DNA of 64,000 bases from positions 64,001 through 128,000 of the IMG/VR virus record IMGVR_UViG_3300029319_000005. One strand, 5' to 3'. Position 1 is the stretch's first letter; each line of letters begins with the position of its first letter. The DNA is from a virus. A program made the translations under genes and the position numbers. The notes under the pieces are model-generated. The model made no database searches. It was not told where the DNA came from and saw only the letters and a program-made list of their open reading frames with translations. Shown here in pieces: positions 19,776-64,000 of the stretch.

Positions 19776-22700
19776 TTAACATGGTTCATTAGAGTGATAC
19801 CCTGCGGTAAGAGTTCCATCAAGAGGATCAAGTTTTCCGGTAACCGAAAGTCCCCAATAAGTCATTCCTAAAGGAGTGATGTGGAAAGGATTAGTAATTC
19901 CAGCAGCAAACAGCACTTCTTGTGGAATTAAAGGATAGGGGAGAAGCGATAAAACAATTGGGAACATCGCTTGTGAGCTTCTCCAGTATCTCATTGTTTT
20001 ATTATCGTAAAGAGATGATGCATCTCCACCAAAAGCAGCCTCTCCTGCTTTAATAGTTGTTTTTACGCCTTGATAGACAGTATCCTTAATTGCCTTCGCT
20101 GTTGCGATCGTTGGGTCTGAAATTTCAGCTAGGCCTTTTAGTATCATTAAACTAGCTTGTAAAATTACCTGTTGATCAATACCTGTAGCATCGACCGGGT
20201 CTGCGGTAGAAAAGGCGTATTGTTCTTCATAAGATCTAAATTCTGCCGCAGAATCATATGATAGTGGCAAGCTAAATGCTGTCATTGTATTTAATAAATC
20301 ACTTTTTGTTTGGCTAAACATCTGACTAAGCCCTGGTTTCGCCGTATCAACTATAGTGTTATAAGTGCCTAATGCACTCAGAGTAGCTAGGTCTTCAACA
20401 GGTAGAGAATAGCCAAAAAGCACTTGAAATTTTTGTTTTTTTAATAATTCTTCTTTGAGTTTAAAAACTTCTTCATAAACTTTATTGTAATCATACAAAA
20501 TATTCCCATCTGGGCCTAGTTGCAATGCAAAGGAAAGAGGAATATCTTTATCTTCAACTCCATAAATGTCACTAATCTTAATCTTGCTTTCCGCTATCGG
20601 TATTTTATATATTTCTTTATTTATAGTTTGTACTTCTTGTTCATCATCAACAGTCACTTGCTTTGTTTCTCTTTCAATTATTTCATATGATTTTTTATAT
20701 AAAGGAGGATAGTTCCTACCGGGAGAGCCAGCAAATGCTCGGCGGGCCTGAATCATATCTGATAGGCTATTTTTTAAAAAGACACCGTCTGATGGAATCG
20801 ACTCTTCAGATTCTTTCGACACTGGTAAAACATAGCTGAGCCTGACACCAGCCTTCAAGGGCTCGTAATAGGTCGTATGGGGTTCATCAGCAAAAAATTC
20901 GCTACCCTTTACTGCTGGCATGAATTTAATTACTTTGTCGCGCAAATTGTTAATAATTTTAGCTCTTTTATCTCTCAATTCTTCAATCTTATCATACCAA
21001 TTCTTTAATAGCTTATAAGCAATTGTTTCTTCGCCTGAGATTCTTTCGTATTCATTCGTTTCAGGATTCAAATAATAAAGAGTTCTCGAATTGTACATAT
21101 TATTATGGTTAGTTTTAGACATGCCTGTCGCGAAAAGAGCCGCATCGTTCATGTGAACCGCAAACTTGTCTATAGACATGGGCATATTAAGATACTCACC
21201 TTCGACTCCAGGGGCACCCGCTCTTACTAATGGAATATCAACAACTGGCGTGTAAACAGCTTCTTCCCCTGCTTCAAAATCTTGTCCGTATAAAGTGTCA
21301 TAATTAATTATAGACATAAATTTATTGAGCGTCGCTCCAATTTCCTGGTCATAGTCGAGGCCGCGAGAGCCAATGTCTATATTATTTGTCATGGAATTTA
21401 TTTCATAAAATTTGCCACTTGGCGTAGGTCTTCCAATCCTAATTGATTTTAATTGTAGCGATTCATCAGAGTTCATAAAGTTATCTACAGCATCGCTAAT
21501 GTATAAAATACTCCAATCATTCATATGGCTTTTAGGAAGCGTGTCATAATTTTGGATTTGATTCAGATAGAATTTCATGTTTAACAAAAGAGTGTCTAAT
21601 GTGGCTCGTCTTCTACCATGATCTTCTGTCCAAATTTCTTTAAACTGGTTTAAAAAATATAAAACGCTTTTCGGCCCAGGATTATTTTCATCACTTAATC
21701 CACTAAATCCGAATAAATTGTGAACACCCTCCATGATAGCGAGACCTGCGTCTTTTGCTCCAACCCAGAACCCACTATCCCAATCAGGATCCCAATCTTT
21801 ATGACTACCAAGTGATTCATTTAACAGTGGTGCGTAATTTTTTGATTTAATACCCCAAATTCTAGAATATTGTTGCGGCTTATAGGAAGCAGCAAGTATG
21901 TTCCTCTCAGGAAGCGCATTTTGTGTCACATCATCAGTAAGCACCTTAAACCCTACCCTAGAGGTCTCTTCGTGTAAATAATCTGGGTGATATCGTTTGC
22001 TCATATGTTCACTCACGCTATCTTGGATTATATCGTCTGGGTCCATGTTAACATTTTCACCCATCCAATCGAGTGATTTAAAATTAGTTACACTAGAGTT
22101 TGGTTGATGAATCGTTGTCTTGCCGAACAATAAAGATGGCTTTACAAACAGCGGCGCTTCGTTAATATCTGTGCCAAATAAACCGCTGAAGACGGCTATC
22201 TGTGAACTGAATTCATAATTTACATCTTCATAATCTAACAAAGGAAGAGAAGTCAAATCTTTTATATTCTTTTTTAAATTTTTCGTTGTTATTTGTTTTG
22301 GGAATATTATTTCCACGTCTGGATTAGAGAACTGTCTCCAAGTTAACCGTGAAACTGCTGAATTACCTTTTTTTAGGGTAGCGTCTATTTCTCGCTCAAC
22401 AAGCTCATAGGGGTAATAGTTGAATCCTTGTATACAACTCGACCATTTTACTAGGTTGGCACCAATGCTTTTATCAGCGAAAAGGCCATAAAAAGTAAGA
22501 CCTTTTAGCACATGGTCAAAGTGCCAATAGAGTTCTTCAGCGTTAAGATTAAAAACAATCTCATTAACATCTACATATGATGTAGCTAGATTAGAAGAAA
22601 TTTGTAATTGCTCGCCATTAGTGGCGGTTAAAATATTTAAATCATAAACAGCAGTACCATCTGCAATACCTTTTAACTCGGCTATTTGGCTAATTCCTTT

Positions 22701-25700
22701 TGACTCTCCAAAAGGTAGTTCAATCGTAGGATAGATAGTATCAAAAATTTTATCCCACTCTTCTCTTTCTGGCGTTCCCTCCTCCGCTTTTGGTATAGCA
22801 TATTGTAAATTTAAGAAATTTAAAAGAGATTCTGATGCGTCTTGCACATTTGAAAAATCTGCGTTTCTAATAAATTCTTTTAAATCTTTTTCAATAGGAA
22901 ATAATGCTAGATCTTCACTATGTTTATTTTCCATATATAAAATCAATCTAGGAAACAAAGATGACTTTAGTGACAAGCGCCACTTTCCTTGTTCCGAATC
23001 GTAAATCAATTGTCTTATATGAAATCTTTTATCCCAATCAGACCACCCAGGAGACGACATACCTTCGTAAATCTTAGCAAAAACAGCATAGCAATCTTCC
23101 GACGTTATTGGGTTATCGATATCACCTTTACCTAAAACAATTTTGTCTTGATTTTCATAAGCAGTATTATCCCAGACATTCCAAGTAAATTTTGATTCAT
23201 ATTCAACGTAGTATTTCATTGAATTTAAATATTTTTGTATATACAGAACGTTAAGCCATGATTTTTGTAAATAAGTGTCAACCACTGAAAAAGACGCCGG
23301 GGCGTGGATTAAATTGGTTCCTTGATTAGGAGAGTAGGGAGCAGCGCCATCAGTCCAATCTAATGATTCTCCAGTATAAGGAACAAAATTTGTAAGCAAT
23401 AAATCTGTTTTAAACTGCTCAAAATCAGTTCCTTGTTTTTTAAGCATTACTTGATATATCGAGATGATAGAATCGAATAAGGCACTTTCTTTATCTTTTA
23501 AAGAAACAATATCAAGCGCACTCCATTTGCTCCAATCGGTAGCACTCAAATCCGCTTCAAATTTAACAAAGCTGTTAGGAGTGTACCTTACGACAGATCT
23601 TTTTGAATTATTGATACTATCTCCTCCAATATAAAAAGAGAAATTAGCACCTTTCTTTGCCTTAGATGTGTTTGGATCAACAAGCCTATGAGCACCAAGG
23701 GGAACGTGTGGAAGTCCATCAGTCTTCGCTAGATCCCCTATTGTGGCAATTGATTTAAACACTCGAACATTCCCATCCGAATCTATATTATTTATATTTT
23801 TAAAGTTAGAGTCTTGGCCTGTAAGATTCAACAATTTTTTGGGAATCGCTGTTGGCCTATATCTAAACTGTTTCCAGTCTTCAAAAATTTCAAACAATTC
23901 TTTATCAATTGCAGACAATTCAGAAAAACCTTCATTAAGATTATTGGTTACTGTAGCCAGTGAATAAAAATCATCTAGCCCTACATAGCCATTAAATAAA
24001 GGTGCTGCTCCATCAATCTCTAAAAAGTCTTTCACATAGTCAAAAGATTGATCGCTTATTTGTCCATATATTCCTTGGGAAACTGCCTCTTCCGCCGATA
24101 GGTTTGAAAACATAGGATTTGAATTAAAATTAACCTTTTTAGCACTTGTTTTAATGGGAGGTATATTTTTCAACTTCGGCTGATTATTGCCGATATTAAG
24201 CTTGGCCTTAACCTCTATGAACTGTTCTAAAACAAATCCTCCATCTTTAAAATATCTTTGATCAATATTATTTTTTAATATTTGCTTTTCTATAGAAACA
24301 ATCCTTCCAAGCTCATTGTTATAAAAATTTGGTGGTACATCAAACTTTTCAAAATCAACTTCAAGAGTAGCGAGCATATCATTTAAATCAATAGTCCCCT
24401 TTTGCGAAGCCTGCGACAGCACTTCTAATAATTCATCATTTTTTGGACCATTATAGGCATAGCTTAGATATCTTGCGATATCCAAAGCTTGATTAGCAGG
24501 GTCCTCAAACATACTAACAAACGTAGGAACGTTTAAGACCTCTGGATAAACCGTTCTTCCCGCAATCTTAAGGTTATCATCAGTCAAAGCCTTGTTTTTT
24601 AAATCCGGCTGTACAACTCCGTATGTTTGTACGACTGGCGTGTCTAATATTCTACGGAAAAGGCTGTCAGATACTTCTCCAAACTTTTCAACATCAATAT
24701 CTAACTCAGAGACTGTCTGGATGTTCTCTTTAACCTTATCTGAGACTTCGTACAGTGTCTTTTCTAAAAGCAATTTTAAAGCATCAGTGTTTGTCATTTC
24801 AATGGCTTCTTCTTGAGTTAAAATGTCATATGAAGCTTGTGCCATTAGACTTAAAATATCGTCCGCGCCGTCTTCGACTTCTGCACAAAATAAACTAAAT
24901 ATAAAGCCCATATAGATTTCTTTGTTCACACTGTTTAGGCCAATCTCAGAAAAATAAAATATAGACGGAAGAAATTTTTCATATATTAGGACTCTCATAA
25001 AAGTTTTAGTCAGTCCTGCCATGATCGCTCTTTGCAATGCTGCTTGCTCATCAAGTCCTTGACAAATAAAGTTCTTTCTGATCGTTTCCATAGATGCCGT
25101 TAAAGAGGCCAGGTCCATAAGATCAACTTGCTTTGTAGGACAAAGCGGATCATCAAACAGAGTCATAGTTAAAATTCTGTTCGAGTCTAAGAATGGTGAA
25201 TATAAAGATTTTTTAGAAAACCTTCCAGCGAGTGTGTCTAAAGCAGTCGAATAGTGGGCTCGCATGGACGCTCTGAACTGTGCCTCAAATTGCTCATTAA
25301 TTTGACCTAAAATAGGTTTCCAACTGTCTGTCATGACCTGAGAAAACCTTTCTGCTTGGGACGACGGCTGAAACTGTCCCTCTATCCCCACCGCATAGGG
25401 GTCCGGATAAGCGTGAGTTTTTGAAAGAGCCTTCATGGCTTGTTCAAGTTGTGCGCTTGGATTAGGGCTTTTTATTCTCAAAGACAAGGTTTCATTTTGA
25501 TTATCTATTTCTATAGAATGCAAGCCTGTAATGTCTATTAGATACTGCGAGGCTCCGTCAGGCGACAATCCAGAATAAATTTTATTTTTAAGAATTATTT
25601 CTTTATCATATTCCAGATTATTAACAAAATCATTATTTTTTATGTTTTGAGCATTCGTCTTCTTTGTTAAAGATAAAGCAGCTACTGCTCTGTTTTCTTT

Positions 25701-28646
25701 TAATTCACTAAAACGATCAATGCCGTCCAATGATTCTATAAATTCTAATCCCGCAGCAAATCCAGAGGTGTTAAATAATCTTCTTAATTTTGCCATGGGA
25801 TCGATAGTATTAAATCTAACTTCTTGTTTAAAATCGTTAGAAATGACCTCTACTAAGGTGTTATCTTCATCTTTTAAAAGATTTCTAAAATCTACTAAAA
25901 GCTCAACATTTTTCTGTGAAGCTCCTCCTTTGTTTGCGCTCATAGAAGGCACTAGCACTTTGTCATCAAGCTCTATAAAGTTGGTAGTAATGTTTAATTT
26001 AGAAATTGCATCGCTATCAAACAAAAATACAGGAAAAGCATTCAATTCAACCGTAAACTTTGTCTTAATTGAATCAAAGGCACTCTGATAGGCGCTTTTA
26101 TTCATAAAATCGCCAGCCGGATCAGGAATTTTTAACAACTCACACGGCTGTAAAACAAACTCTGGGTCGAATGCCAGAGCGCTTTCAGGATTTTTATCTG
26201 GCAGTCCGCCAATAATTTCATCTAAAAGACCGTCATCATAATTTGAATATTTGTCTTTCATTTGCTGTTTAAAGTCAGCACAAATTTCGGCGCTTGACAT
26301 CCTAGCCATTTCATCTATTTTTTCATCTAATAGTGATAAGTTACAATCTTCTCGACCCATAGACGCTAATCCAGATTCGACAGCAGCCTTTTCGGACCTG
26401 ATCCCTAGTTGTTGGTTAAGTCCTCTTGCTATCGCTTCAATTACAGAGTTATTAGCGTTCCCTTGCAAGCAATCTCTCATTTCCAAAGGAGTAGTAGTGT
26501 TGGTAACAATTTTCGCTAATTTTTCGATTTCTTTTTTAGTGCGTAGTAAGTTTGCAGACTTCGGAGATCTTTCCATTGATTTTGTAATAACATGGTCTGC
26601 AAACTTTAGAAGCGCATCATCTTTATTTGTTAAAAAGTCTCCAAGGTCTGCGGCCCCCTTCTTAAACTGATCGCCTACACCTTCAACATTACAAGAAGCG
26701 ATCATTATCAGCATTTGTTTAAAAAAATCAACAATTGCTCGTTCTACGGTCTCTTTTATAACTCCTTCAATATTGTTAGTAAAATCACCCCAAAAATCAC
26801 CAATTGGAGTGGTTTTTTTGAAAGCAGGCATTATCCTAGTATTTCCTAGAGTTACCAAAAATTTGTCAATCCTGTCAAGAACATCAACATTTGGAGTGCC
26901 ATATCTATCAGCACAAGTTAATCCTAGTATTAAAAGGTCTCTAACTGTCAACCTTTTCACAATCAAGTTTTCTATATCTTTAATTGTTTTAATTCTAGAA
27001 AGAAGCCTGCCGGAACTGATCTGCGCTACGGTTGAATCTCTAATAACGTGGCTGGGCCTTATTTTAGCATTGCCAGGATAACTTAACCAGGGCGCATCAT
27101 ATTGTTCATTTAAAGATGAAAAGTTAAAGCCATCCGATAAAAGAGACCCATATGCCTCATGTAGGCCAGAGGCAGCGATAGACGCAACCACTCCTCCGGC
27201 AACATCGCCAGTCACAAACAAGCCTTTTATATTGGCATCTGCTCCCGCCTCGGCAATACCAGCTAATGAGTTTATTGCGTCCTCTCTGTCAAAAGGAGCA
27301 TTTGTCACTTGATCATAAAGTTTTGAAATATCGTGTTTTACTTGTGATAAAATAGCCTTTTCTTTTTCAACATCCTCAGAACCTTTGTATAGCGCATCTG
27401 CTTCATCAAATACTTTCTCTATTTTTTGTAGATTTTCTATACTAATGTCTTTTGGATAGTGATAGGCCTCCAAAAATGGCATTAAATCAGTATAATCAGC
27501 ACCCCCTCCATCTAGAAAACCAGAAGTAACGTCGCTAATAGGATTAGAAGAATCAATTATTTCATTAATATTTCTAATGTAGTTAACGAAAGTTGGGTAA
27601 TATTCTGCTTCAATTGTGCTTTTAGTTCTACCTATGGATGTATCTAAAAACTGGTTGTTACCTAGTGACTCCTCGCTGCCCTCTAAATTTAGCTCTGCTG
27701 TTATTTGTGCTTCAAACTCTGACTCGCCAACCCTAATAGCAGCCGCTGGTAAATTTTTGATAAAACTAAATCCAAAGTACTGTTTTTCAAACCCTAATCT
27801 AGAAAGTGCTTCGTCGCTGTTTAAAGAAGACTCTCTAGGATTTTGCTCTACTAGTCCATAAACCTCTTCCATTAAGTTAACAGCCTGCTTTTCGCTAGAG
27901 TCTGGAATTTCCACTAAGTTTCTAGCTTCAGCCCTAAAAGATTCAAGCCCTCTAGAATCCGGAAAAGTTATACATAGAATAGGAACCAACCCTTCCAGCC
28001 ACGACACCGGCCCTTTAGTACTTCCGGCTATTTCATATAAACCCTGTTGGTTCACTTCGCTCGCTTGTTTTTGGGAAGATTTTTTCTCTTCATAAAATTC
28101 TTTCATGTCTGCTACTAACGCATCTTTCCATGCGTCAATATTTTCTATGATATATTTTTCTTTATAAAGATCGACTTTAATTTTATCTGCCGCTTCAACT
28201 ATTGCTGTTAAAACAGCCTTTAACTTTCTTAGCTTAGCCACGAAAATAGAATTGTCGCTATAAGTTTCGTCAAATTCTAGTATCACAAAATCAGTAGCCC
28301 CATTAAGAAGGGCGCTGCTAGGAGCATCTCTTCTAACTGCCCCTAAAGAACTTAATACAACATCAGATATCAAAACACTAACAGAAATCGTTGCTGCTGC
28401 CGGATCATACTTAAAGTAATCTCCCTTAATAGCTCTAGGTAACGAAATTAAATTAGCATCATTTGTGAGTTCCGAATATGCAGAGGGCGATAGCAGATAC
28501 TCAGTGTCTAGCAATTCAACCGCTCTAGTACGAATTAATTTTTGTACTTCGTTTGTAAACAGTTTTTCATTTTTATCAGCAACAAAGTCCTTGCCGCTAG
28601 ACCAGTCTATTACTATTGGAATTTGTAAATATTTTTTTGTAGCCAC
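19776..28646 (-). CDS. Giant hypothetical protein (2956 aa), probably a tail/baseplate hub or ejected protein
   Basis: Uninterrupted ORF with GTG start and AAGGA SD, between the spike genes and gp25. Acidic, helical-looking, with hydrophobic C-terminal segments. Confidence 0.6.
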   Translation of the reverse strand: MATKKYLQIPIVIDWSSGKDFVADKNEKLFTNEVQKLIRTRAVELLDTEYLLSPSAYSELTNDANLISLPRAIKGDYFKYDPAAATISVSVLISDVVLSSLGAVRRDAPSSALLNGATDFVILEFDETYSDNSIFVAKLRKLKAVLTAIVEAADKIKVDLYKEKYIIENIDAWKDALVADMKEFYEEKKSSQKQASEVNQQGLYEIAGSTKGPVSWLEGLVPILCITFPDSRGLESFRAEARNLVEIPDSSEKQAVNLMEEVYGLVEQNPRESSLNSDEALSRLGFEKQYFGFSFIKNLPAAAIRVGESEFEAQITAELNLEGSEESLGNNQFLDTSIGRTKSTIEAEYYPTFVNYIRNINEIIDSSNPISDVTSGFLDGGGADYTDLMPFLEAYHYPKDISIENLQKIEKVFDEADALYKGSEDVEKEKAILSQVKHDISKLYDQVTNAPFDREDAINSLAGIAEAGADANIKGLFVTGDVAGGVVASIAASGLHEAYGSLLSDGFNFSSLNEQYDAPWLSYPGNAKIRPSHVIRDSTVAQISSGRLLSRIKTIKDIENLIVKRLTVRDLLILGLTCADRYGTPNVDVLDRIDKFLVTLGNTRIMPAFKKTTPIGDFWGDFTNNIEGVIKETVERAIVDFFKQMLIMIASCNVEGVGDQFKKGAADLGDFLTNKDDALLKFADHVITKSMERSPKSANLLRTKKEIEKLAKIVTNTTTPLEMRDCLQGNANNSVIEAIARGLNQQLGIRSEKAAVESGLASMGREDCNLSLLDEKIDEMARMSSAEICADFKQQMKDKYSNYDDGLLDEIIGGLPDKNPESALAFDPEFVLQPCELLKIPDPAGDFMNKSAYQSAFDSIKTKFTVELNAFPVFLFDSDAISKLNITTNFIELDDKVLVPSMSANKGGASQKNVELLVDFRNLLKDEDNTLVEVISNDFKQEVRFNTIDPMAKLRRLFNTSGFAAGLEFIESLDGIDRFSELKENRAVAALSLTKKTNAQNIKNNDFVNNLEYDKEIILKNKIYSGLSPDGASQYLIDITGLHSIEIDNQNETLSLRIKSPNPSAQLEQAMKALSKTHAYPDPYAVGIEGQFQPSSQAERFSQVMTDSWKPILGQINEQFEAQFRASMRAHYSTALDTLAGRFSKKSLYSPFLDSNRILTMTLFDDPLCPTKQVDLMDLASLTASMETIRKNFICQGLDEQAALQRAIMAGLTKTFMRVLIYEKFLPSIFYFSEIGLNSVNKEIYMGFIFSLFCAEVEDGADDILSLMAQASYDILTQEEAIEMTNTDALKLLLEKTLYEVSDKVKENIQTVSELDIDVEKFGEVSDSLFRRILDTPVVQTYGVVQPDLKNKALTDDNLKIAGRTVYPEVLNVPTFVSMFEDPANQALDIARYLSYAYNGPKNDELLEVLSQASQKGTIDLNDMLATLEVDFEKFDVPPNFYNNELGRIVSIEKQILKNNIDQRYFKDGGFVLEQFIEVKAKLNIGNNQPKLKNIPPIKTSAKKVNFNSNPMFSNLSAEEAVSQGIYGQISDQSFDYVKDFLEIDGAAPLFNGYVGLDDFYSLATVTNNLNEGFSELSAIDKELFEIFEDWKQFRYRPTAIPKKLLNLTGQDSNFKNINNIDSDGNVRVFKSIATIGDLAKTDGLPHVPLGAHRLVDPNTSKAKKGANFSFYIGGDSINNSKRSVVRYTPNSFVKFEADLSATDWSKWSALDIVSLKDKESALFDSIISIYQVMLKKQGTDFEQFKTDLLLTNFVPYTGESLDWTDGAAPYSPNQGTNLIHAPASFSVVDTYLQKSWLNVLYIQKYLNSMKYYVEYESKFTWNVWDNTAYENQDKIVLGKGDIDNPITSEDCYAVFAKIYEGMSSPGWSDWDKRFHIRQLIYDSEQGKWRLSLKSSLFPRLILYMENKHSEDLALFPIEKDLKEFIRNADFSNVQDASESLLNFLNLQYAIPKAEEGTPEREEWDKIFDTIYPTIELPFGESKGISQIAELKGIADGTAVYDLNILTATNGEQLQISSNLATSYVDVNEIVFNLNAEELYWHFDHVLKGLTFYGLFADKSIGANLVKWSSCIQGFNYYPYELVEREIDATLKKGNSAVSRLTWRQFSNPDVEIIFPKQITTKNLKKNIKDLTSLPLLDYEDVNYEFSSQIAVFSGLFGTDINEAPLFVKPSLLFGKTTIHQPNSSVTNFKSLDWMGENVNMDPDDIIQDSVSEHMSKRYHPDYLHEETSRVGFKVLTDDVTQNALPERNILAASYKPQQYSRIWGIKSKNYAPLLNESLGSHKDWDPDWDSGFWVGAKDAGLAIMEGVHNLFGFSGLSDENNPGPKSVLYFLNQFKEIWTEDHGRRRATLDTLLLNMKFYLNQIQNYDTLPKSHMNDWSILYISDAVDNFMNSDESLQLKSIRIGRPTPSGKFYEINSMTNNIDIGSRGLDYDQEIGATLNKFMSIINYDTLYGQDFEAGEEAVYTPVVDIPLVRAGAPGVEGEYLNMPMSIDKFAVHMNDAALFATGMSKTNHNNMYNSRTLYYLNPETNEYERISGEETIAYKLLKNWYDKIEELRDKRAKIINNLRDKVIKFMPAVKGSEFFADEPHTTYYEPLKAGVRLSYVLPVSKESEESIPSDGVFLKNSLSDMIQARRAFAGSPGRNYPPLYKKSYEIIERETKQVTVDDEQEVQTINKEIYKIPIAESKIKISDIYGVEDKDIPLSFALQLGPDGNILYDYNKVYEEVFKLKEELLKKQKFQVLFGYSLPVEDLATLSALGTYNTIVDTAKPGLSQMFSQTKSDLLNTMTAFSLPLSYDSAAEFRSYEEQYAFSTADPVDATGIDQQVILQASLMILKGLAEISDPTIATAKAIKDTVYQGVKTTIKAGEAAFGGDASSLYDNKTMRYWRSSQAMFPIVLSLLPYPLIPQEVLFAAGITNPFHITPLGMTYWGLSVTGKLDPLDGTLTAGYHSNEPC

Positions 28647-57112: not shown

Positions 57113-57113
<1 letters not shown>
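57086..57113 (-). promoter_or_regulatory. Near-consensus sigma70 promoter
   Basis: TTGACT-16 nt-TATAAT. Confidence 0.7.
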
Positions 57114-57186
<73 letters not shown>

Positions 57187-57191
57187 ATCTA

Positions 57192-57809
57192 CTAGATTAT
57201 TTCGTCTATGAGTCCATACTTAAGACAGGTTTTTGCATCCCACCAGAGATCATGTTTTAGGATCTCGCCAAGCTGCTTTTTAGGAATTTTGGTATTTTCC
57301 TCGTATATTTTTTTAATTGTTTTCATCAAAAGATCACAATTTTGTAAGTCATCTTTCATGTCTTCATACTTGCCCCACATCCCGGAAGACAATTGGTGTA
57401 TTAGCATAAAAGAATGTTCACGCATGTATCTCTTGTCGCCAACAACACTCATAAGAGTCGCTGCCGAGGCTGCACATCCATCGATAATAGTATTTACAGG
57501 AACCTTGCAATTCTTGATATAGTCCACGCTGGAAAAGCCCGCAAAAACACTGCCACCGTAAGAATTAATGTGCAAGTTTATATGGATGTCCGGAACGTCC
57601 AATATATTAGCACTGTTGCTGTATCTGTTGGATAAGGTGACTATGTACTTATTTAAGTACAGATTGTTCGGTCGAGTTACTTCAGAATAGAAGTAAATAT
57701 TGTTATTCTCCCACTCAATCTTGTTGTTTGGTCCAAACCCTGTTCCTTTACTTGTAGTAGTTGTGGTTTGGGGTTTATTTGCTTTTGAAAACCAATAGTC
57801 TTCGTTCAA
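57192..57809 (-). CDS. clpP: ClpP-family protease subunit
   Basis: 'INSYGGSV', 'GCAASAAT' (Ser), 'LIHQ' (His), 'D.W...LKYGLIDEI'. TTG start with AGGAG SD. Confidence 0.85.
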   Translation of the reverse strand: MNEDYWFSKANKPQTTTTTSKGTGFGPNNKIEWENNNIYFYSEVTRPNNLYLNKYIVTLSNRYSNSANILDVPDIHINLHINSYGGSVFAGFSSVDYIKNCKVPVNTIIDGCAASAATLMSVVGDKRYMREHSFMLIHQLSSGMWGKYEDMKDDLQNCDLLMKTIKKIYEENTKIPKKQLGEILKHDLWWDAKTCLKYGLIDEII

Positions 57810-57875: not shown

Positions 57876-58766
57876 TTATCTAAAGTTGGCATAACCTATG
57901 TCAATAATAGCTATCTGTCCATTTTTTTCCATAATGTTTGAAGTTTTCAAATCATTAAAGATAATGCCATTGTCGTATAAAAAAGTTAGTCCGGATGCAA
58001 GTTGGTTAAGATATAAACTTCTCGGGTCACTTAAAACTTTATTTGCGTGTTCTGTTGCCGACAGAGAGTCAGATAAAGTAGAATTATACATACCGACACT
58101 TAAGGTCCAAAATTCAGTAAAAAGTCTTTTTTGTAGTTCATCCCATCCTAAAGTATTAGAAATAGAATCAATTTTTGGTTCTATCGAGTCCCACTTATTG
58201 GAAGAAGGAGTTAAAACGATGGAATCCTTAGACAGGGCATTCAAAAATTGTTTTATAAGATTCTCTGCTTCAGATAAGTAAGATTCTTTCCACTGGTAGT
58301 AAAACTTATCTTTTTTTATTTTATGGAACATAAGCTCTGCTACATCAACCATTAATCTATTTGGATATTCTAAGTAAGAATATACAATGGCGTATCTCTG
58401 ATTTTCCAAAGGTCTAAATTCTACGGGCAACTCTTGTGCTTTATAAATTGTGTAAACATTCGGGTGTTCTTTACCAGCTATCATTTTAGCGGCGCGATAC
58501 TCTGTGTCATCCGACGTTATCTTCAACACTTTTTTATCAAACAAATAGGCAGAACCTTTTGATCCAGAACCAAGAAAATCAGGGTCTCCCTTTAGATCTC
58601 CCCATTTTTTAAATGATTCTATAGCCCTAGAAGTAAGAGGTATTCTTTTTTGTTCATCAGTTACTTTAGCTAAAGAATCATTAATAAATCTTCTTCCGCT
58701 GTCTAATGTATTGATACGCTCGTCTAGACTTTTATATGCTCTCCATCCTGCAAAAATATCTCGCAT
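57876..58766 (-). CDS. Protein-kinase-like (PKL fold) enzyme with N-terminal WR leader
   Basis: Gly loop 'LGSGSKGSAY', 'VLKIT', 'E', 'HPNV', 'DLKTSNIM', 'IIDIG'. Confidence 0.75.
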   Translation of the reverse strand: MRDIFAGWRAYKSLDERINTLDSGRRFINDSLAKVTDEQKRIPLTSRAIESFKKWGDLKGDPDFLGSGSKGSAYLFDKKVLKITSDDTEYRAAKMIAGKEHPNVYTIYKAQELPVEFRPLENQRYAIVYSYLEYPNRLMVDVAELMFHKIKKDKFYYQWKESYLSEAENLIKQFLNALSKDSIVLTPSSNKWDSIEPKIDSISNTLGWDELQKRLFTEFWTLSVGMYNSTLSDSLSATEHANKVLSDPRSLYLNQLASGLTFLYDNGIIFNDLKTSNIMEKNGQIAIIDIGYANFR

Positions 58767-58767
58767 G

Positions 58768-59352
58768 TTATTTCTCTATGTCTTCTAATAGACGAGATAT
58801 CGCCCAGCGTTTATTACGAGAAAAATTCTCGTAATACTCTATTTCGGCAGCTTCTTTGAAATGAAATGGACGCCCCTTAACCCGCGACATAAATTCTGAT
58901 TCTTCGCCCATCTTAATCCCACCAACATCCATTGTCTCACCAAAAGGGGGGTATTCATTGTCAGGCCTAGTTCCTACAAGAAAAGCGTCGCTCGCGCCGC
59001 GAGGTATTAGAAGAACAGAGTCTTGCTCGTACTCAATGCCAAAATTTTCTATCGATTTAAAGAAATTAGGCTTATTATGTTTGTTTACAACAAGCAGGCT
59101 CTCTTCTGTAACTTCTACTGCCTCTGGAGTTTCAAAGTTTTCAATAAATGAGCCCACAAGTTTAGCGACACCATAGCCTCTTTTGAGTAGACGAGCTTTT
59201 AATATTTGTCCTTTTTCTTTGTTCTCTTTTGCGGTATTTTCTGCACGATAAGCAGAAATGATAGCAGTGTCGTATTCTTTCATATGAGAGTAAAATCTAG
59301 ATAAAGATGATTCTGCTAAAAATATTCTCCATTCATGTAGTATATCTTGCAT
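58768..59352 (-). CDS. DUF3293-like phage protein with N-terminal WR leader
   Basis: 'IISAYR..EN..L...L...GY...G..E.S.LV...G..Y.QDSVL' pattern. Confidence 0.5.
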   Translation of the reverse strand: MQDILHEWRIFLAESSLSRFYSHMKEYDTAIISAYRAENTAKENKEKGQILKARLLKRGYGVAKLVGSFIENFETPEAVEVTEESLLVVNKHNKPNFFKSIENFGIEYEQDSVLLIPRGASDAFLVGTRPDNEYPPFGETMDVGGIKMGEESEFMSRVKGRPFHFKEAAEIEYYENFSRNKRWAISRLLEDIEK

Positions 59353-59372
59353 AATTTTTAGTGCCTCGCTAG

Positions 59373-59416
59373 TAAGTAGGGTTCGTCAAATAAAAGATAT
59401 CTAATATATCTACTTA
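59373..59416. promoter_or_regulatory. Divergent pair of CTACTTA motifs
   Basis: CTACTTA on - (59379-59373) and on + (59410-59416), each pointing to a gene start. Confidence 0.55.
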
Positions 59417-59423
59417 CTATACT

Positions 59424-60041
59424 ATGAGCAAAGTCTCAACAAATAAGTCTAACATAGAAAAAGAAAAATTCAAGAAAAGATTTCAGAAAAGAACAATGTT
59501 AGAAATCTCCGCCTTAGTTCTTGAACTTGAAGAGGCTGAAGAGTTGGACATAGAGTACAGCAAAAAGTTTTCTGCGGACTTTAAGGATGAGTTAAAGTAT
59601 AAAGCTGCTCTCTTAGACGAGATTGAAAATGCTCCTACAGAGGAGGAAAACATCTCAAAGTCTAAAAAGTCAGAGCCACATGATTTTATAAAAACTCTAT
59701 ACAGAGAAATAGCTAAAAAGACACATCCTGACAGATTTGGAGATGAGTACCAAGACCAATTTAAAACTGCCAGTGTTGCCTATGAAGAAGAGGAGTGGCT
59801 TACACTGCTAATGATAGCTGCCGATTTAAGTATTAACATGCCCCTCTTTGATCAAGATGCTCAACAAATAATAAGTAAAGAGATAGAACACAAAAGACGA
59901 TTACTAGAAAAAAAGAAAGAGTCCCTAGTATGGGCCTGGGCTTCGTCGGATGACTGTCCAGAGACAAGGCGCAAAGCTAGGTCTTACATGGACATCGATG
60001 AAGATAAATTCCAAGAATTTTTAAAAAAAGACTCTATGTAG
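59424..60041 (+). CDS. J-domain-like (HPD) coiled-coil protein
   Basis: 'IKTLYREIAKKTHPD..F...SVAYE'. Confidence 0.7.
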   Translation: MSKVSTNKSNIEKEKFKKRFQKRTMLEISALVLELEEAEELDIEYSKKFSADFKDELKYKAALLDEIENAPTEEENISKSKKSEPHDFIKTLYREIAKKTHPDRFGDEYQDQFKTASVAYEEEEWLTLLMIAADLSINMPLFDQDAQQIISKEIEHKRRLLEKKKESLVWAWASSDDCPETRRKARSYMDIDEDKFQEFLKKDSM

Positions 60042-60294
60042 CACCATCAGAGAGGTCCGCAATTTCTTCTTCAGAGTCCTCTAATCTAGTGAAATGAACT
60101 TCCATAAAGCTGTCGTCCGTGAGCCAAACAGGCCTAAACTTTAGGGAATTGTTGTCCTCGCTAATCTCTTGTAAGTCTGGGTTGTGGTTTACGAGATAGT
60201 TAACCACAATCTTTTGTACTTGATCTTTTTCTAGAGAAATGCTACCAAGGTAGGTAACTTCTCCTTCAGCATTTTGTTCAGTATCGGTACTCAT
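60034..60294 (-). CDS. Acidic hypothetical protein
   Basis: 86-aa ORF. Confidence 0.65.
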   Translation of the reverse strand: MSTDTEQNAEGEVTYLGSISLEKDQVQKIVVNYLVNHNPDLQEISEDNNSLKFRPVWLTDDSFMEVHFTRLEDSEEEIADLSDGAT

Positions 60295-60296
60295 TT

Positions 60297-60488
60297 TTAA
60301 TCCTTATTTTCGTATTGTTTGTCTACTGCTGAAACAATTGACCACGTTTCAGATCCTTCTCTACGGTTATTGCACGCTACATAAGCTTCAGTGGAAGCTT
60401 GGGGGAAGGTATGTGCCTCTACAAGTATACTCTCTCTCTTACCAGTTGAAGAGCTTTGTATAATAAATTCAAATTGTTTAATTGGCAT
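60297..60488 (-). CDS. Hypothetical protein
   Basis: 63-aa ORF, tightly packed with neighbours. Confidence 0.6.
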   Translation of the reverse strand: MPIKQFEFIIQSSSTGKRESILVEAHTFPQASTEAYVACNNRREGSETWSIVSAVDKQYENKD

Positions 60489-60492
60489 TTTA

Positions 60493-60726
60493 TTATCCTA
60501 AAATAAGCTTTTTATTTTCTTTAACAGAGGTTTCTTTTTCTTCCAGCACTTCTTCAAGTTGAAGAGAGGCTAGATGTGGGTATTTTTCAAATACTTCAGG
60601 AAGAGTTAATTTTTCTTCTATCTGAATTTTCTTTATCTGTTCTGCTACTTTACCCATCGTTCCCTCTATAAAATTCTTCTTGTACTCTCTTTTCCGTATC
60701 TTCAAACTTTTTTTCGAATTTGTCAA
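60493..60726 (-). CDS. Hypothetical protein (start uncertain)
   Basis: 77-aa ORF overlapping the upstream gene. Confidence 0.55.
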   Translation of the reverse strand: MTNSKKSLKIRKREYKKNFIEGTMGKVAEQIKKIQIEEKLTLPEVFEKYPHLASLQLEEVLEEKETSVKENKKLILG

Positions 60727-60922
60727 TCTTTTTTTTTAAAAGATCGCAGTCTTCCTTATTTCTTATTTCAAGACACCTAGAATATACTTGCATTATAAAC
60801 GCCTGATCTCTACCATCATTGAACCCATGTATATAACCAAGATCATGACTATAATATCTGTTATTTGTACAAGAAATAAAAAGTGGAAGTAATAAAAAGT
60901 TAAGAAATAAAGATCTTACCAT
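60650..60922 (-). CDS. Small predicted lipoprotein
   Basis: MVRSLFLNFLLLPLFIS-C. Confidence 0.55.
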   Translation of the reverse strand: MVRSLFLNFLLLPLFISCTNNRYYSHDLGYIHGFNDGRDQAFIMQVYSRCLEIRNKEDCDLLKKKIDKFEKKFEDTEKRVQEEFYRGNDG

Positions 60923-61173
60923 TTGTGAGTTGGTTCAATCTTCTTTGCTAAGGTTCGAAGATGTTCTGAGAACGTGTTCTGAGTAGTGCTTAGCTGGTTC
61001 TTGAGGATTGCTACTTCGTCAACAAGATCGCTAATCCTGCTTCTCATAGCACCAAGCTTGTTGTTGGTTTCCAGTAGCTGCTCTTGTAAAGCTATAGTCT
61101 TTGTAGATAGCTCTTCATTTGTCTGTAGGTTTAGTAGTCCTTCGTCGACTACATTCTTCTTTCTTCCTGCCAT
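60916..61173 (-). CDS. Coiled-coil hypothetical protein
   Basis: 85 aa with heptad pattern and AGGAG SD. Confidence 0.7.
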   Translation of the reverse strand: MAGRKKNVVDEGLLNLQTNEELSTKTIALQEQLLETNNKLGAMRSRISDLVDEVAILKNQLSTTQNTFSEHLRTLAKKIEPTHKW

Positions 61174-61185
61174 TTTCTAACTCCT

Positions 61186-61281
61186 TTAGAATCCGGGGCA
61201 ATGTATAAAAATACTAGCGGTTGATACAATTCCAAAGCAAATTATAGCAACCATAAGAAACTTTTGAAAGTTTTCTTTCAT
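61186..61281 (-). CDS. 31-aa membrane micropeptide (not in the ORF track)
   Basis: MKENFQKFLMVAIICFGIVSTASIFIHCPGF; starts 6 nt after a -10 box. Confidence 0.5.
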   Translation of the reverse strand: MKENFQKFLMVAIICFGIVSTASIFIHCPGF

Positions 61282-61287
61282 ATAAAT

Positions 61288-61316
61288 ACAATAACATATA
61301 TAATATATTATTTAAA
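61288..61316 (-). promoter_or_regulatory. Extended -10 promoter, probably giving a leaderless transcript
   Basis: TTTAAA-17 nt-TATTGT with extended TG, in an extremely AT-rich gap. Confidence 0.4.
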
Positions 61317-61332
61317 TAAATATAAATATTTA

Positions 61333-61425
61333 TTATTCTTTTTGATCAAACAGATATTTTAGTCCAATAATAAATAAAATTAAATATACTAGCCATTTTA
61401 TTTTAGTAAACAAAGGGTGCTCCAT
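61333..61425 (-). CDS. 30-aa membrane micropeptide (not in the ORF track)
   Basis: MEHPLFTKIKWLVYLILFIIGLKYLFDQKE; ATG directly abuts the upstream TAA. Confidence 0.5.
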   Translation of the reverse strand: MEHPLFTKIKWLVYLILFIIGLKYLFDQKE

Positions 61426-61833
61426 TTACTTTTCTTTAAGGTCTAGTACCCATTCGCCATTTACTTTCTTAGCACTTACTCTCATTCCAAGAAAATACCA
61501 ACGCTCGAACACGCTAGCGTCTAACTCCGGTACAAGGCCTTTCTCAATGTCTCTAAAAAATCCAACTGCTCCCTGGATAATCTGCGACTCAACCGAGTGG
61601 TCATCTCCAATCTCAAAAACTTTTTTACTCTTGTGCTTTATATCTAGCCATGCTACTGTGTCTGCCAATGTTTGTTTCATTCTTTTATTTTTGGCAATGT
61701 GGGCAGCATGATACAAATGCCCCTTTAGTGTATCAATATGGATTCCCATAAATGGGTGCCCACCGTAAGTTACCTTTGCGGAAGCGCTCACGGATATAAA
61801 ACACAAAATTATAGCTAATATTAATTTTTTCAT
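61426..61833 (-). CDS. Secreted/periplasmic hypothetical protein
   Basis: Sec signal MKKLILAIILCFISVSASA. Confidence 0.65.
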   Translation of the reverse strand: MKKLILAIILCFISVSASAKVTYGGHPFMGIHIDTLKGHLYHAAHIAKNKRMKQTLADTVAWLDIKHKSKKVFEIGDDHSVESQIIQGAVGFFRDIEKGLVPELDASVFERWYFLGMRVSAKKVNGEWVLDLKEK

Positions 61834-62435
61834 TAGATTACTCCTCTATCCATCTTCTGGATTTGTAGCTTTATGTCTTCAGTATACACTAGTCTAGGAT
61901 CTTTTTCCTCGTATAATGAAAATTTAGACTTATCAAAATCATCAATCGATAGGCTGACAACCATCATCTCTCCGCCGTGCCTATCGACGCTAGCTGCTGC
62001 ATTACTTTCGGCTAATTCATAATTTCCCCATTCGCTTGGAGCAGGAACTCCGTTTTCAACTAATGAGTCTTTTAGTGCGGTCGACGTACCATAGAAAAGT
62101 TCAGTTATGTTGTCTAAACGCTTAGATTTAGGAGGATCGATGCCTTTAAAATAACTGGGAAGGCCCATTTCGCCTGTAGCTCTCCAATCTCCGCTGTTGA
62201 CTGCTTCTAAGGCAGAATAGAGATCTATCTCTCCTCCCCCAAGACTATCAGTCCACGAGACGCCATTTTCATCTACTTTTTCAATTTTAATGATAAGAGG
62301 CTTTTCCTCTGAAAACTCATGGTCTCGTATCACGGCACCAGGGACAATGCCAGCGGCCTCTAACTTCTGCAAGTACTGTGTGCTAACTCTCGATTCTTTC
62401 AAAAACTTCCGCCACTCTGTTAGTAGTTTTTTCAT
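61833..62435 (-). CDS. Hypothetical protein with WR leader and a possible degenerate ADP-ribosyltransferase-like C-terminal domain
   Basis: Leader MKKLLTEWRKFLKE. 'LFYGTS...SLVENG' resembles LYHGT..I..GL. Confidence 0.5.
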   Translation of the reverse strand: MKKLLTEWRKFLKESRVSTQYLQKLEAAGIVPGAVIRDHEFSEEKPLIIKIEKVDENGVSWTDSLGGGEIDLYSALEAVNSGDWRATGEMGLPSYFKGIDPPKSKRLDNITELFYGTSTALKDSLVENGVPAPSEWGNYELAESNAAASVDRHGGEMMVVSLSIDDFDKSKFSLYEEKDPRLVYTEDIKLQIQKMDRGVI

Positions 62436-63052
62436 TCTTTTTTTACCAGTTCCTTATTTATGATATCATAGCCTTCCACAACTCCCACCTTTTCGTAATC
62501 AAAATCGGGGAGTAGAGCAATCTTTTGTTCTGGAAATTTACCATTTACAATAAATGAACAAGCTTGACCTACCACTTCTGTGAAAAGGGCTGGATGTGAC
62601 TTAGGTGGCATTGTTTGTATGTGTGCATTATAAGAAGCAATTTCGCCTTTGGCATCGAACTTTGTACCTCGTTGGATGTGAGACATGAAGTCGTGGACTG
62701 CTCTAAATTTTGCGTTTGTCTTGGGATCAAAGATATCGTGTTCTGCATCAAGCGTAGAAATTTTTAAAACACCATTCTGTTTCACATCTTGCTTTAATTC
62801 TTCTGCTGTAGCATAAGGATGTTCCTCAACAAACTCTACATCGATAACACCTTCAATTCTTTTAAACATCTTATCAACAAAAGGCTTCATCGCTTCAAAA
62901 TAGGGAACAGCGGCTGAATCAAACCTGGGCGCTTTAGCATAAGCTTCTGCAACCAACTGGCAATACTTATCCCAACCATTTGGTCCGGGCTTAAGCATTA
63001 ATTTTTCATCTAATACGACGAATTTACGCCAATTTTCAAGTAAGAGTTTCAT
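62432..63052 (-). CDS. Phage protein with WR leader and an 'FRAVHDxxxH..GE..TE..GQ' putative metal-binding domain
   Basis: Leader MKLLLENWRKFVVLDE; 'NAKFRAVHDFMSH', 'GEIASY..H', 'LFTEVVGQ'. Confidence 0.6.
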   Translation of the reverse strand: MKLLLENWRKFVVLDEKLMLKPGPNGWDKYCQLVAEAYAKAPRFDSAAVPYFEAMKPFVDKMFKRIEGVIDVEFVEEHPYATAEELKQDVKQNGVLKISTLDAEHDIFDPKTNAKFRAVHDFMSHIQRGTKFDAKGEIASYNAHIQTMPPKSHPALFTEVVGQACSFIVNGKFPEQKIALLPDFDYEKVGVVEGYDIINKELVKKE

Positions 63053-63053
63053 A

Positions 63054-63593
63054 TTACCATGCCTTACAAGACCAATATCTTGCTTTCCATTTAGGCCCAG
63101 GGTTTTTGCAATTATGTCGAGCCCTGAAAGATTTTCTAGCCTTTGGATTAGATTTTCTAATTTTCATATTAGGATCACCGAAGTTTACTTTAACAACGTT
63201 GCCTTTTGCATTCTTAACATAGACCTTAGATTTTTTAACATCACCCTTCATAGGCTTATTTAATGTTACTTTGCGACCTTGGTATTCTGCTTCTTCTAAA
63301 ACCTCGCCTTCTGCGAGCATCTCATAGTAGGCTTGCTCGTCTACATCTTCGGTAGTAACTTTCTTTTGTTGCTTGGCTTTTTTAACTTTGCTTTTAAGAC
63401 GATTCATATTATATTTACCAATCTTAGACAGCTTCGACAAAGCCTGCACCGCTGATGGACTACTATGCCCAGCCATTATGGCATCGATTGCTTGTTTCTC
63501 TAGTTCAGCTATGTTTGGAGAATCGTCTTCACTTAACAAGGCATTAAGTTCTTCTTTTACAATTTTTCTAATCTGTTCTTTTGTGATATTCAT
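63054..63593 (-). CDS. Basic DUF6321-like putative internal head protein
   Basis: N-terminal 'ITKEQIRKIVKEEL..LSE'. C-terminal 'KVYVKN..VKV.FG..RKSFRARH.C..ARYWSC..W'. AGGAG SD. Confidence 0.65.
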   Translation of the reverse strand: MNITKEQIRKIVKEELNALLSEDDSPNIAELEKQAIDAIMAGHSSPSAVQALSKLSKIGKYNMNRLKSKVKKAKQQKKVTTEDVDEQAYYEMLAEGEVLEEAEYQGRKVTLNKPMKGDVKKSKVYVKNAKGNVVKVNFGDPNMKIRKSNPKARKSFRARHNCKNPGPKWKARYWSCKAW

Positions 63594-63715: not shown

Positions 63716-64000
63716 TTATCCTTTTTTTCCTGCTTTAGATTTTTTGCCAGATTTTTTTGAGGTCCCACAATCAGATGGTGTTGGGCGACAATGTGGATAC
63801 TTTGCTCTTTTTTCGCCCTCTTTTCTTCCGCACGATTTGCAAGTTTTCCTACCAGTCTTCTCGTCTTTTCTACAGGTATTGCAGTCCACCCAGCCTTTTG
63901 ATTTGCCTTTACCACCTTGTCGGGAAAACCAACCGTGTAGACCGGATTCTTTTTCTTTAGAGTAGTCAGTTTTCTTTTTCTTTTCTTCTAGCTCGTTCTC
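63716..64000 (-). CDS. C-terminal part of a basic Cys-containing protein, truncated by the window edge (not in the ORF track)
   Basis: ENELEEKKKKTDYSKEKESGLHGWFSRQGGKGKSKGWVDCNTC..CKSCGRKEGEKRAKYPHCRP..KKG*, stop at 63716. Confidence 0.7.
   Translation of the reverse strand, partial: ENELEEKKKKTDYSKEKESGLHGWFSRQGGKGKSKGWVDCNTCRKDEKTGRKTCKSCGRKEGEKRAKYPHCRPTPSDCGTSKKSGKKSKAGKKG

Follow-up and report, generated by a model that had tools for sequence, protein, structure and literature searches.

An N-Terminal WR Leader on Unrelated Proteins of an Uncultured Phage with a T4-Type Head Module, and Its Probable Role as a Capsid-Targeting Propeptide

The IMG/VR record IMGVR_UViG_3300029319_000005, from an uncultured marine T4-like phage, contains a region of minus strand genes whose products are otherwise unrelated but begin with a common leader of 14 to 16 residues, built around an invariant Trp-Arg (WR) pair. 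The window analyzed here is the whole 64,000-nucleotide stretch from base 64001 to base 128000 of this 147,376-bp record, which CheckV estimates to be 81% complete. The leader has a constant anatomy, is restricted to the N-terminus, is portable among protein bodies and ends in a conserved cleavage-like motif, and the genome that carries it encodes a T4-type head module. We consider it probable, by analogy, that the WR leader is a capsid-targeting propeptide in the style of T4, with which a set of phage proteins would be loaded into the head, trimmed and injected.

In mechanism, the leader would form a short amphipathic helix outside the enzyme fold, and that helix would dock the newly synthesized protein to the scaffolding core while the prohead is being assembled. 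A prohead protease of the gp21 family (S77) would cut after the Glu of the terminal [LIV]-x-E, and the freed enzyme would remain in the head and enter the host with the DNA. The repeated leader DNA may double as a recombination site, permitting tag swaps and shuffling of the cargo genes. Docking, cleavage, packaging and injection are steps that we infer from the sequence.

The Leader and Its Distribution

The consensus of this leader, called class A, is M-K-[KLE]-[LI]-[LM]-[TEN]-[EN]-W-R-K-[FY]-L-[KN]-E. Four complete genes in the window carry it, all on the minus strand. A 206-residue protein with an HDxxxH motif (window 62432–63052) starts MKLLLENWRKFVVLDE, with the leader in residues 1–16 (63005–63052) ending in VLDE. 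A 200-residue protein with no assigned family (61833–62435) starts MKKLLTEWRKFLKE, with the leader in residues 1–14 (62394–62435). A 194-residue protein of the S-adenosylmethionine (SAM) lyase family (58768–59352) starts MQDILHEWRIFLAE, with the leader in residues 1–14 (59311–59352) ending in FLAE; a gap of 1 nt separates this gene from the downstream gene of a 296-residue kinase-like protein (57876–58766), which starts MRDIFAGWRAYKSLDE and has the leader in residues 1–16 (58719–58766) ending in SLDE. A fifth minus strand gene, for a 179-residue protein (63054–63593), starts MNITKEQIRKIVKEELNALLSE with a different leader, class B, in residues 1–22 (63528–63593). A first-pass annotation made from the letters alone had described leaders on five minus strand open reading frames, and all five are where it placed them. 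It had also taken the four WR-bearing proteins to be otherwise unrelated, which holds up (one partial Pkinase match, one S-AdoMet_lyase match and two proteins with no Pfam match), but its description of the fifth leader as a relative of the WR type does not, since that leader belongs to the separate class B. The tagged operon continues past the window edge. The C-terminal end of a 342-residue minus strand gene occupies window 63716–64000 (the whole gene is at L006 716–1744), and its start, beyond the window, has the class A leader MKKLLTEWQRYLKE. Further class A-headed genes beyond the window encode a 541-residue ParB-like protein and proteins of 399, 257 and 1102 residues.

A loose form of the leader pattern is found within the first 24 residues of 9 of the approximately 151 genes of the whole genome, compared to a mean of 0.034 and a maximum of 1 in 500 composition-preserving shuffles. 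There are no internal matches to this loose pattern in the proteins of this genome. The shared leader in the window genes is real and far beyond chance. An origin by chance or low complexity is ruled out by the shuffles together with the cellular-genome control given below, and a Sec or Tat signal peptide is ruled out from sequence, there being no hydrophobic core and a charge every 2–3 positions.

By scanning IMG/VR with a DNA pattern encoding E-W-R-K-F-[LF]-[KN]-E, we find 44 matches in 36 stretches. An ATG lies exactly six codons upstream in 33 of the 44, and a GTG in 2 more. Several of the matches are in tandem arrays of 2–3 genes, and the sequences downstream of the leader differ. In 596 Gb of bacterial and archaeal genomes there are 77 matches to this pattern, and not one has a start codon at that position. 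Two near-complete relatives (178 and 175 kb) carry the leader on 6 and 9 neighboring genes, and the related contigs contain 68 distinct tagged proteins, amounting to 40 body families. A search of 1.84 billion representative proteins with a 30-column leader profile (E ≤ 0.001) matches 194 protein clusters. Among the best 150 of these 194, the motif is present in all; its start falls within the first six residues in 144 (exactly at residue 4 in 139), and the remaining six have it directly behind an in-frame Met. The first-pass annotation had proposed a portable tag and had expected a profile to match only N-termini on diverse genes. Both expectations are borne out, with at least 40 body families in the related contigs and 194 clusters worldwide, the best 150 of which have the motif directly behind a Met or Val start.

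The codons used for the Trp-Arg pair vary across genes and genomes (TGGAGA, TGGCGG and TGGCGT). When the 200-residue protein is compared by hhalign with a leader-tagged ADP-ribosyltransferase (ART) of a relative, only residues 1–19 align, and therefore the two share the leader alone. The AlphaFold2 (AF2) model of the 206-residue protein has a mean pLDDT (predicted local distance difference test score) of 83.5, with residues 1–16 below 50 and the body averaging above 85; as modeled, the leader lies outside the fold. A homologue in a Bxz1-type mycobacteriophage has the domain inside a 433-residue protein without such a leader. A full-text literature search with the motif strings WRKFL, EWRKF and NWRKF gave nothing relevant, and when ten leader clusters were checked for cultured carriers, all ten were metagenomic.

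Some proteins have more than one copy of the leader. In this genome, there is one internal copy in the 541-residue ParB-like protein and several in the 1102-residue protein. Two or three copies are also present in the metagenomic proteins P0141 (1134 residues), P0125, P0214 and P0253. The internal copies in proteins of the P0141 type keep the Met (e.g., ..NKPMKKIFENW..), as if adjacent tagged genes had fused into polyproteins. A relative that is 98% complete (G001) encodes a 1868-residue protein on the minus strand at 92950–98556, with the class A-like leader MKDLLHSWNQYLADQ; its gene is directly behind a CTATTTA motif (see below) and heads a tagged array of six genes.

The Cleavage-Like Site and the Head Module

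In T4, gp21 cleaves L/I-x-E sites behind the Glu, and the ten N-terminal residues of the internal protein IPIII suffice for head targeting; within this capsid-targeting sequence (CTS), targeting depends on residues 4 and 7, and processing on residues 8 and 10 (PMC9026906). Those ten residues, taken from the T4 genome, are MKTYQEFIAE. When the register is aligned at the cut, W8, F/Y11, L12 and E14 of the class A leader fall on CTS positions 4, 7, 8 and 10. These are also the constant positions of the leader: among 139 leaders, W8 and F/Y11 are found in 139, L/I/V12 in 138 and E14 in 137. The ending in [LIV]-x-E, which corresponds to the T4 gp21 consensus (PMC9026906), is nearly universal. In the family of the 206-residue protein, the distance from W8 to the conserved body is 6, 7, 8 or 11 residues, yet the three residues just ahead of that body are [LIVM]-x-E in 114 of 114 sequences. 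In some of these homologues the cleavage-like site is doubled, as in FLNE-EPLNE.

The T4-type head module lies about 18 kb before the window. It contains a portal (gp20; Pfam Portal_T4 PF07230, E = 6e-77), small acidic proteins, a prohead protease of the gp21 family (Peptidase_S77 PF03420, E = 4.7e-32; PHROG head maturation protease, E = 1e-59), a very acidic, gp22-like scaffold protein of 411 residues and a gp23-type capsid protein (Pfam Gp23 PF07068, E = 1.1e-74). A capsid-targeting propeptide of the T4 kind presupposes such a head with its protease, and the three Pfam matches supply it. Judged by the capsid protein, the nearest cultured relatives are Flavobacterium phage immuto, Rhodothermus phage RM378 and Microcystis phage Mel-JY01. 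The capsid protein has LLKE|S in this phage, and with two relatives included, LLKE is followed by S or A; in the alignment it lies opposite the FLTE|A cleavage site of T4 gp23 at E65.

The only other protein in the genome with an N-terminus resembling KKLLxE[WYF] is the prohead protease itself (L004 5222–5863, genome 45222–45863, minus strand), which has the class A-like start MAKKLLQEYFQL. The protease homologues in five relatives have a similar start, then an L-T-E site about 20 residues in. This suggests that the prohead protease has a targeting propeptide of its own. In T4, too, an L-I-E site is present at the gp21 N-terminus, and the gp21 propeptide may function in the manner of a CTS (PMC9026906). 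Among the relatives' protease N-termini are MTKKYVLQEF, MSKKLLREYY and MQLLREWCAF (from among loci L046, L047, L048, L070 and L071). Of ten leader-carrying relatives tested for S77, five have it, including both that are at least 90% complete. As for the relatives without it, one fragment starts inside the capsid gene, and the other four are uninformative because the capsid gene is missing as well.

The Class B Leader

The class B leader has the form MK[IL]TKSxL[RK]xIIKEE and occurs on 7–9 proteins per genome. Its carriers include conserved small proteins flanking the prohead protease gene; in T4, the core proteins gp67 and gp68 are encoded directly upstream of gene 21. Since the protease has a class A-like start and class B proteins sit beside it, each class has a prototype in the head assembly module. 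Flavobacterium phage immuto, the closest cultured phage, carries class B leaders as well as a single class A-like N-terminus beside the protease, but the canonical class A pattern is absent from it. The sharing of leaders may be widespread in this wider phage group. Two adjacent proteins of immuto (L069, 7631–8931) share a further N-terminal motif, M-x-NF-[ND]-L-[RK]-x-FL-x-ENKLT ... LKE, and a 75-residue protein encoded right after the immuto protease starts MENNFDIHKWQAKFLKES.

It is possible, and we offer it tentatively, that the two classes reflect a docking code common to T4-like heads, consisting of LL-x-x-aromatic and then L-x-E. The code would be present in the capsid delta domain and the protease N-terminus and would have been copied in this marine lineage into class A, carried by enzymes, and class B, carried by small acidic core-like proteins. 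A virion would then carry 10–20 effectors, some of them made as polyproteins with several tags, which the head protease would separate into modules. In that case, genomes would be enough to read off what a whole clade of uncultured ocean phages injects (about 200 cargo clusters).

Leader DNA Repeats and a Promoter-Like Motif

A 40-bp exact repeat on the minus strand (window 62398–62437) spans the leader codons of the 200-residue gene. Its twin, 3.9 kb away and outside the window, starts the 541-residue ParB-like gene (the two copies are at genome 126398 and 130332). No other exact repeat in the genome is as long, and two 21-bp leader repeats also place in the top five. Leader subtypes can differ between homologous bodies of more than 85% identity, which indicates recombination through the tag.

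The first-pass annotation had noted a CTAnTTA motif before one pair of tagged genes. The pair is the SAM lyase and kinase-like genes, and the motif is present as CTACTTA (window 59373–59379, minus strand), 27 nt upstream of the SAM lyase start. It is a variant of CTATTTA. In three related genomes, the 60 nt ahead of gene starts are enriched more than 10-fold in CTATTTA and hold 15 of 33, 16 of 34 and 11 of 30 of its occurrences. CTATTTA sits before the scaffold gene in all three genomes, as well as before sheath-like and tube-like genes and several tagged operons. Read on the opposite strand, CTATTTA corresponds to part of the T4 late promoter TATAAATA, and it is a candidate late promoter. In the three genomes it is strongly enriched 12–54 nt upstream of structural and tagged gene starts; examples in this phage are at genome 43761, 37815 and 34727.

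Alternative Functions for the Leader

Several observations weigh against a capsid-targeting propeptide. All carriers of the class A leader are uncultured. The leader resembles the T4 CTS in pattern but not by clear sequence homology, and it has more residues and a net basic charge. That this S77 homologue cuts with the specificity of the T4 enzyme is an assumption. The putative CTATTTA promoter is only 12 nt from one start codon, and several tagged genes have no such motif of their own. Finally, a ClpP-like protease co-occurs with the leader in 5 of 5 genomes, and for that reason co-occurrence alone cannot single out S77. A function for ClpP can be imagined in which the leader is a tag for the phage ClpP-like protease working with a host unfoldase, so that early effectors are destroyed on schedule, alongside the phage transfer-messenger RNA (tmRNA). 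A ClpP-like gene (PF00574, window 57192–57809, minus strand) adjoins the kinase-like gene, and the tmRNA, with its ALAA-ending tag, is inside the tagged gene region. We nevertheless think this very improbable. ClpP is 75–105 kb from the tagged arrays in two near-complete relatives, and ClpP degrons require no conserved cut site, so that the L-x-E boundary, the match to the capsid site and the T4 CTS register all go without explanation. The promoter-like motif of the tagged operons also precedes the scaffold gene. In all five carrier genomes tested, the ClpP-like genes are away from the head module. ClpP as the processing enzyme was considered separately and ruled out, its adjacency to the tagged genes not being kept in relatives.

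The leader could also be an uncleaved helix for docking or oligomerization at some site other than the capsid, for example on the host membrane, in a phage complex for replication or takeover, or within an assembly of several enzymes. It is short, amphipathic, net basic and detached from the fold, helices of that kind can bind membranes or partner proteins, and its cleavage is predicted from sequence alone. This is unlikely, though it is the alternative that we take most seriously, for it provides no reason for a near-invariant E14 and a strict [LIVM]-x-E junction maintained across indels. Nor does it account for the match to the predicted maturation site of the capsid protein, the likeness to the prohead protease N-terminus, or the restriction to phages with a T4-type head module. 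Alternatively, what spreads between gene starts might be chiefly a nucleic-acid cassette (DNA or RNA) that serves in translation initiation or as a recombination hot spot and encodes a functionless peptide. The repeats described above, with leader DNA as the longest in the genome, and the swapping of leader types between bodies more than 85% identical would fit such a cassette, but the peptide is conserved through different Trp-Arg codons, W8, the aromatic at 11 and E14 hardly vary among the 139 diverse leaders, and the internal copies are at domain borders, where an initiation signal is unneeded. We regard the cassette as very improbable. A capsid-targeting propeptide, whose DNA may recombine as well, remains the reading that we prefer.

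The Tagged Proteins

The cargo in this genome comprises a SAM lyase, a kinase-like protein, a ParB-like protein, a Nudix hydrolase and proteins without an assigned function; the relatives add an ADP-ribosyltransferase, a C39 peptidase, a 2H phosphoesterase, a GNAT protein and an exonuclease. Over the tagged bodies, Pfam matches include SAM lyase, ART-PolyVal, Peptidase_C39, NUDIX, Pkinase, 2H phosphoesterase, GNAT, RNase_T and ParB_N. The tagged ART-PolyVal protein of a relative scores 32.9 bits, above the cut-off. The Nudix hydrolase is encoded beyond the window (NUDIX, E = 3e-12) and is probably leader-headed if read from an internal ATG. The 399-residue cargo has no match among cultured phages.

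The 194-residue protein, called DUF3293-like in the first-pass annotation, instead matches Pfam S-AdoMet_lyase (PF23780, E = 4.7e-14, 52.9 bits against a cut-off of 28). We assign it to that family, with the activity as a prediction. A PDB sequence search matched it to no solved structure. Another leader-tagged SAM lyase is present in a related contig. For the 296-residue protein, the original kinase label stands in part. Pfam Pkinase matches with E = 2e-9 over residues 244–294 only, and PDB kinases align to residues 234–295 only. The match spans the catalytic loop to a DFG-like DIG motif, and the protein ends about 8 residues later.

The label of ART-like given at first to the 200-residue protein is not supported. 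It has no Pfam family, even at E ≤ 10, and no PHROG family, and its hhalign match to the tagged ART is confined to the leader. It has only 3 homologues, one of which has a different leader type on a 76% identical body, and an AF2 model from the resulting 3-sequence alignment failed (pLDDT 30.6). The ESM Atlas provides a weak lead in that PARP appears in 16% of a cluster at a score of 0.84. The 206-residue protein has 418 homologues, which make up a large marine metagenomic family; it has conserved His and Asp residues (HDxxxH) and no Pfam match. Its model finds no Foldseek match in PDB with E < 0.5 and a best VIA-align Z of 2.9, and PDB sequence searches with it were empty.

Comparison to Known Systems

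As far as can be judged from genomes, every defining feature of the T4 internal protein system that is testable in sequence is found in the leader system. Like the CTS of the T4 proteins IPI, IPII, IPIII and Alt, which gp21 processes, the leader is a short N-terminal propeptide, by prediction, common to unrelated proteins and ending in [L/I]-x-E, and it is encoded together with a gp21-family protease, a gp22-like acidic scaffold, gp20 and gp23. Both tags have the arrangement aromatic-x-x-aromatic-[IL]-x-E (Y4, F7, I8 and E10 in T4; W8, F/Y11, L12 and E14 here). Both begin with M-K, and at this length a tag is too short for a statistical test of homology. A tagged ADP-ribosyltransferase in relatives recalls T4 Alt. 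As in T4, the leader DNA is repeated, and recombination between tagged genes is plausible. The tag differs from that of T4 in having 14 residues instead of 10, with an extra K-K-L-L head, a net basic charge and the invariant Trp-Arg, and it has no detectable sequence homology to the T4 tag. There are about 10 class A cargo proteins per genome, compared to four tagged head proteins in T4, and the cargo consists mostly of enzymes of 130–540 residues (up to 1102), whereas that of T4 consists of small basic proteins. A second leader class and multi-tag proteins are also unlike T4, and the present system is known from sequence alone. What appears to be novel with respect to T4 is thus the sequence and length of the tag, the number and predicted enzymatic nature of the cargo, the second tag class and the multi-tag proteins.

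The CTS has been suggested as a general route by which T4-like phages may load varied proteins (PMC9026906). In the giant phages phiKZ, 201phi2-1 and SPN3US, propeptides of head and ejection proteins are cut by gp21-like proteases (PMC5694885). Those propeptides are mostly 80–160 residues, protein-specific and ending in [A/S/G]-x-E (PMC5694885), whereas here one short, near-identical tag is reused on dozens of bodies. The polyvalent proteins, which by prediction enter the host with the DNA when infection begins (Iyer et al. 2017, PMC5512222), overlap with the cargo in effector domains (ART-PolyVal, ParB-like, 2H phosphoesterase and papain-like peptidase), and some tagged proteins are similarly multi-module with internal tag copies. 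Polyvalent proteins have two to fifteen disparate domains per polypeptide, usually with a zincin-like metallopeptidase, and are thought to cut themselves (PMC5512222). In the leader system, most effectors are separate genes with their own tag, and the head protease would do the cutting; the four class A proteins of the window are single-module, at 194–296 residues, with no metallopeptidase match in Pfam. The Dar proteins of phage P1 (DarA, DarB, DdrB and Hdf) are likewise anti-defense proteins loaded into the head during assembly, some of them processed, and injected. Their loading is by a hierarchy of specific protein–protein contacts, without a common short N-terminal tag.

Phage proteins injected with the DNA act before any phage gene is expressed, and so they decide the first minutes of the contest with host defenses. 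To our knowledge, beyond T4, P1, N4 and a few giant phages, the only way to find such proteins is proteomics on the virions of phages in culture. With a short, recognizable tag tied to the head protease, the cargo could be listed from metagenomes. For this clade, the list so far would include SAM lyase, ADP-ribosyltransferases, kinase-like and ParB-like proteins, Nudix hydrolase and many proteins without an assigned function. A SAM lyase is a known means to starve SAM-dependent restriction and BREX. If the capsid-targeting reading is true, it would extend the T4 principle well beyond the T-even phages and would provide a second, independent tag with which to study how cargo docks to the scaffolding core.

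Other Features of the Region

The tmRNA mentioned above is on the minus strand at L006 5028–5337 (genome 132028–132337), just upstream of the tagged 399-residue gene. Its tag peptide is ANDNVAFDYALAA, ending in ALAA (ARAGORN; Rfam RF00023, 125.9 bits). A tag of the form ANDN...ALAA may hint at a proteobacterial host. There are two ClpP-like genes on the minus strand, at window 57192–57809 and genome 276–923, each with an N-terminal extension, and a tRNA-Thr at window 57113–57186 comes after the former. The sole plus strand gene inside the tagged region (window 59424–60041) encodes a DnaJ-like J-domain protein by a weak match (E = 1.5e-4). The structural region has two very large open reading frames on the minus strand, at window 7220–15916 and 19776–28646, encoding 2898 and 2956 residues.

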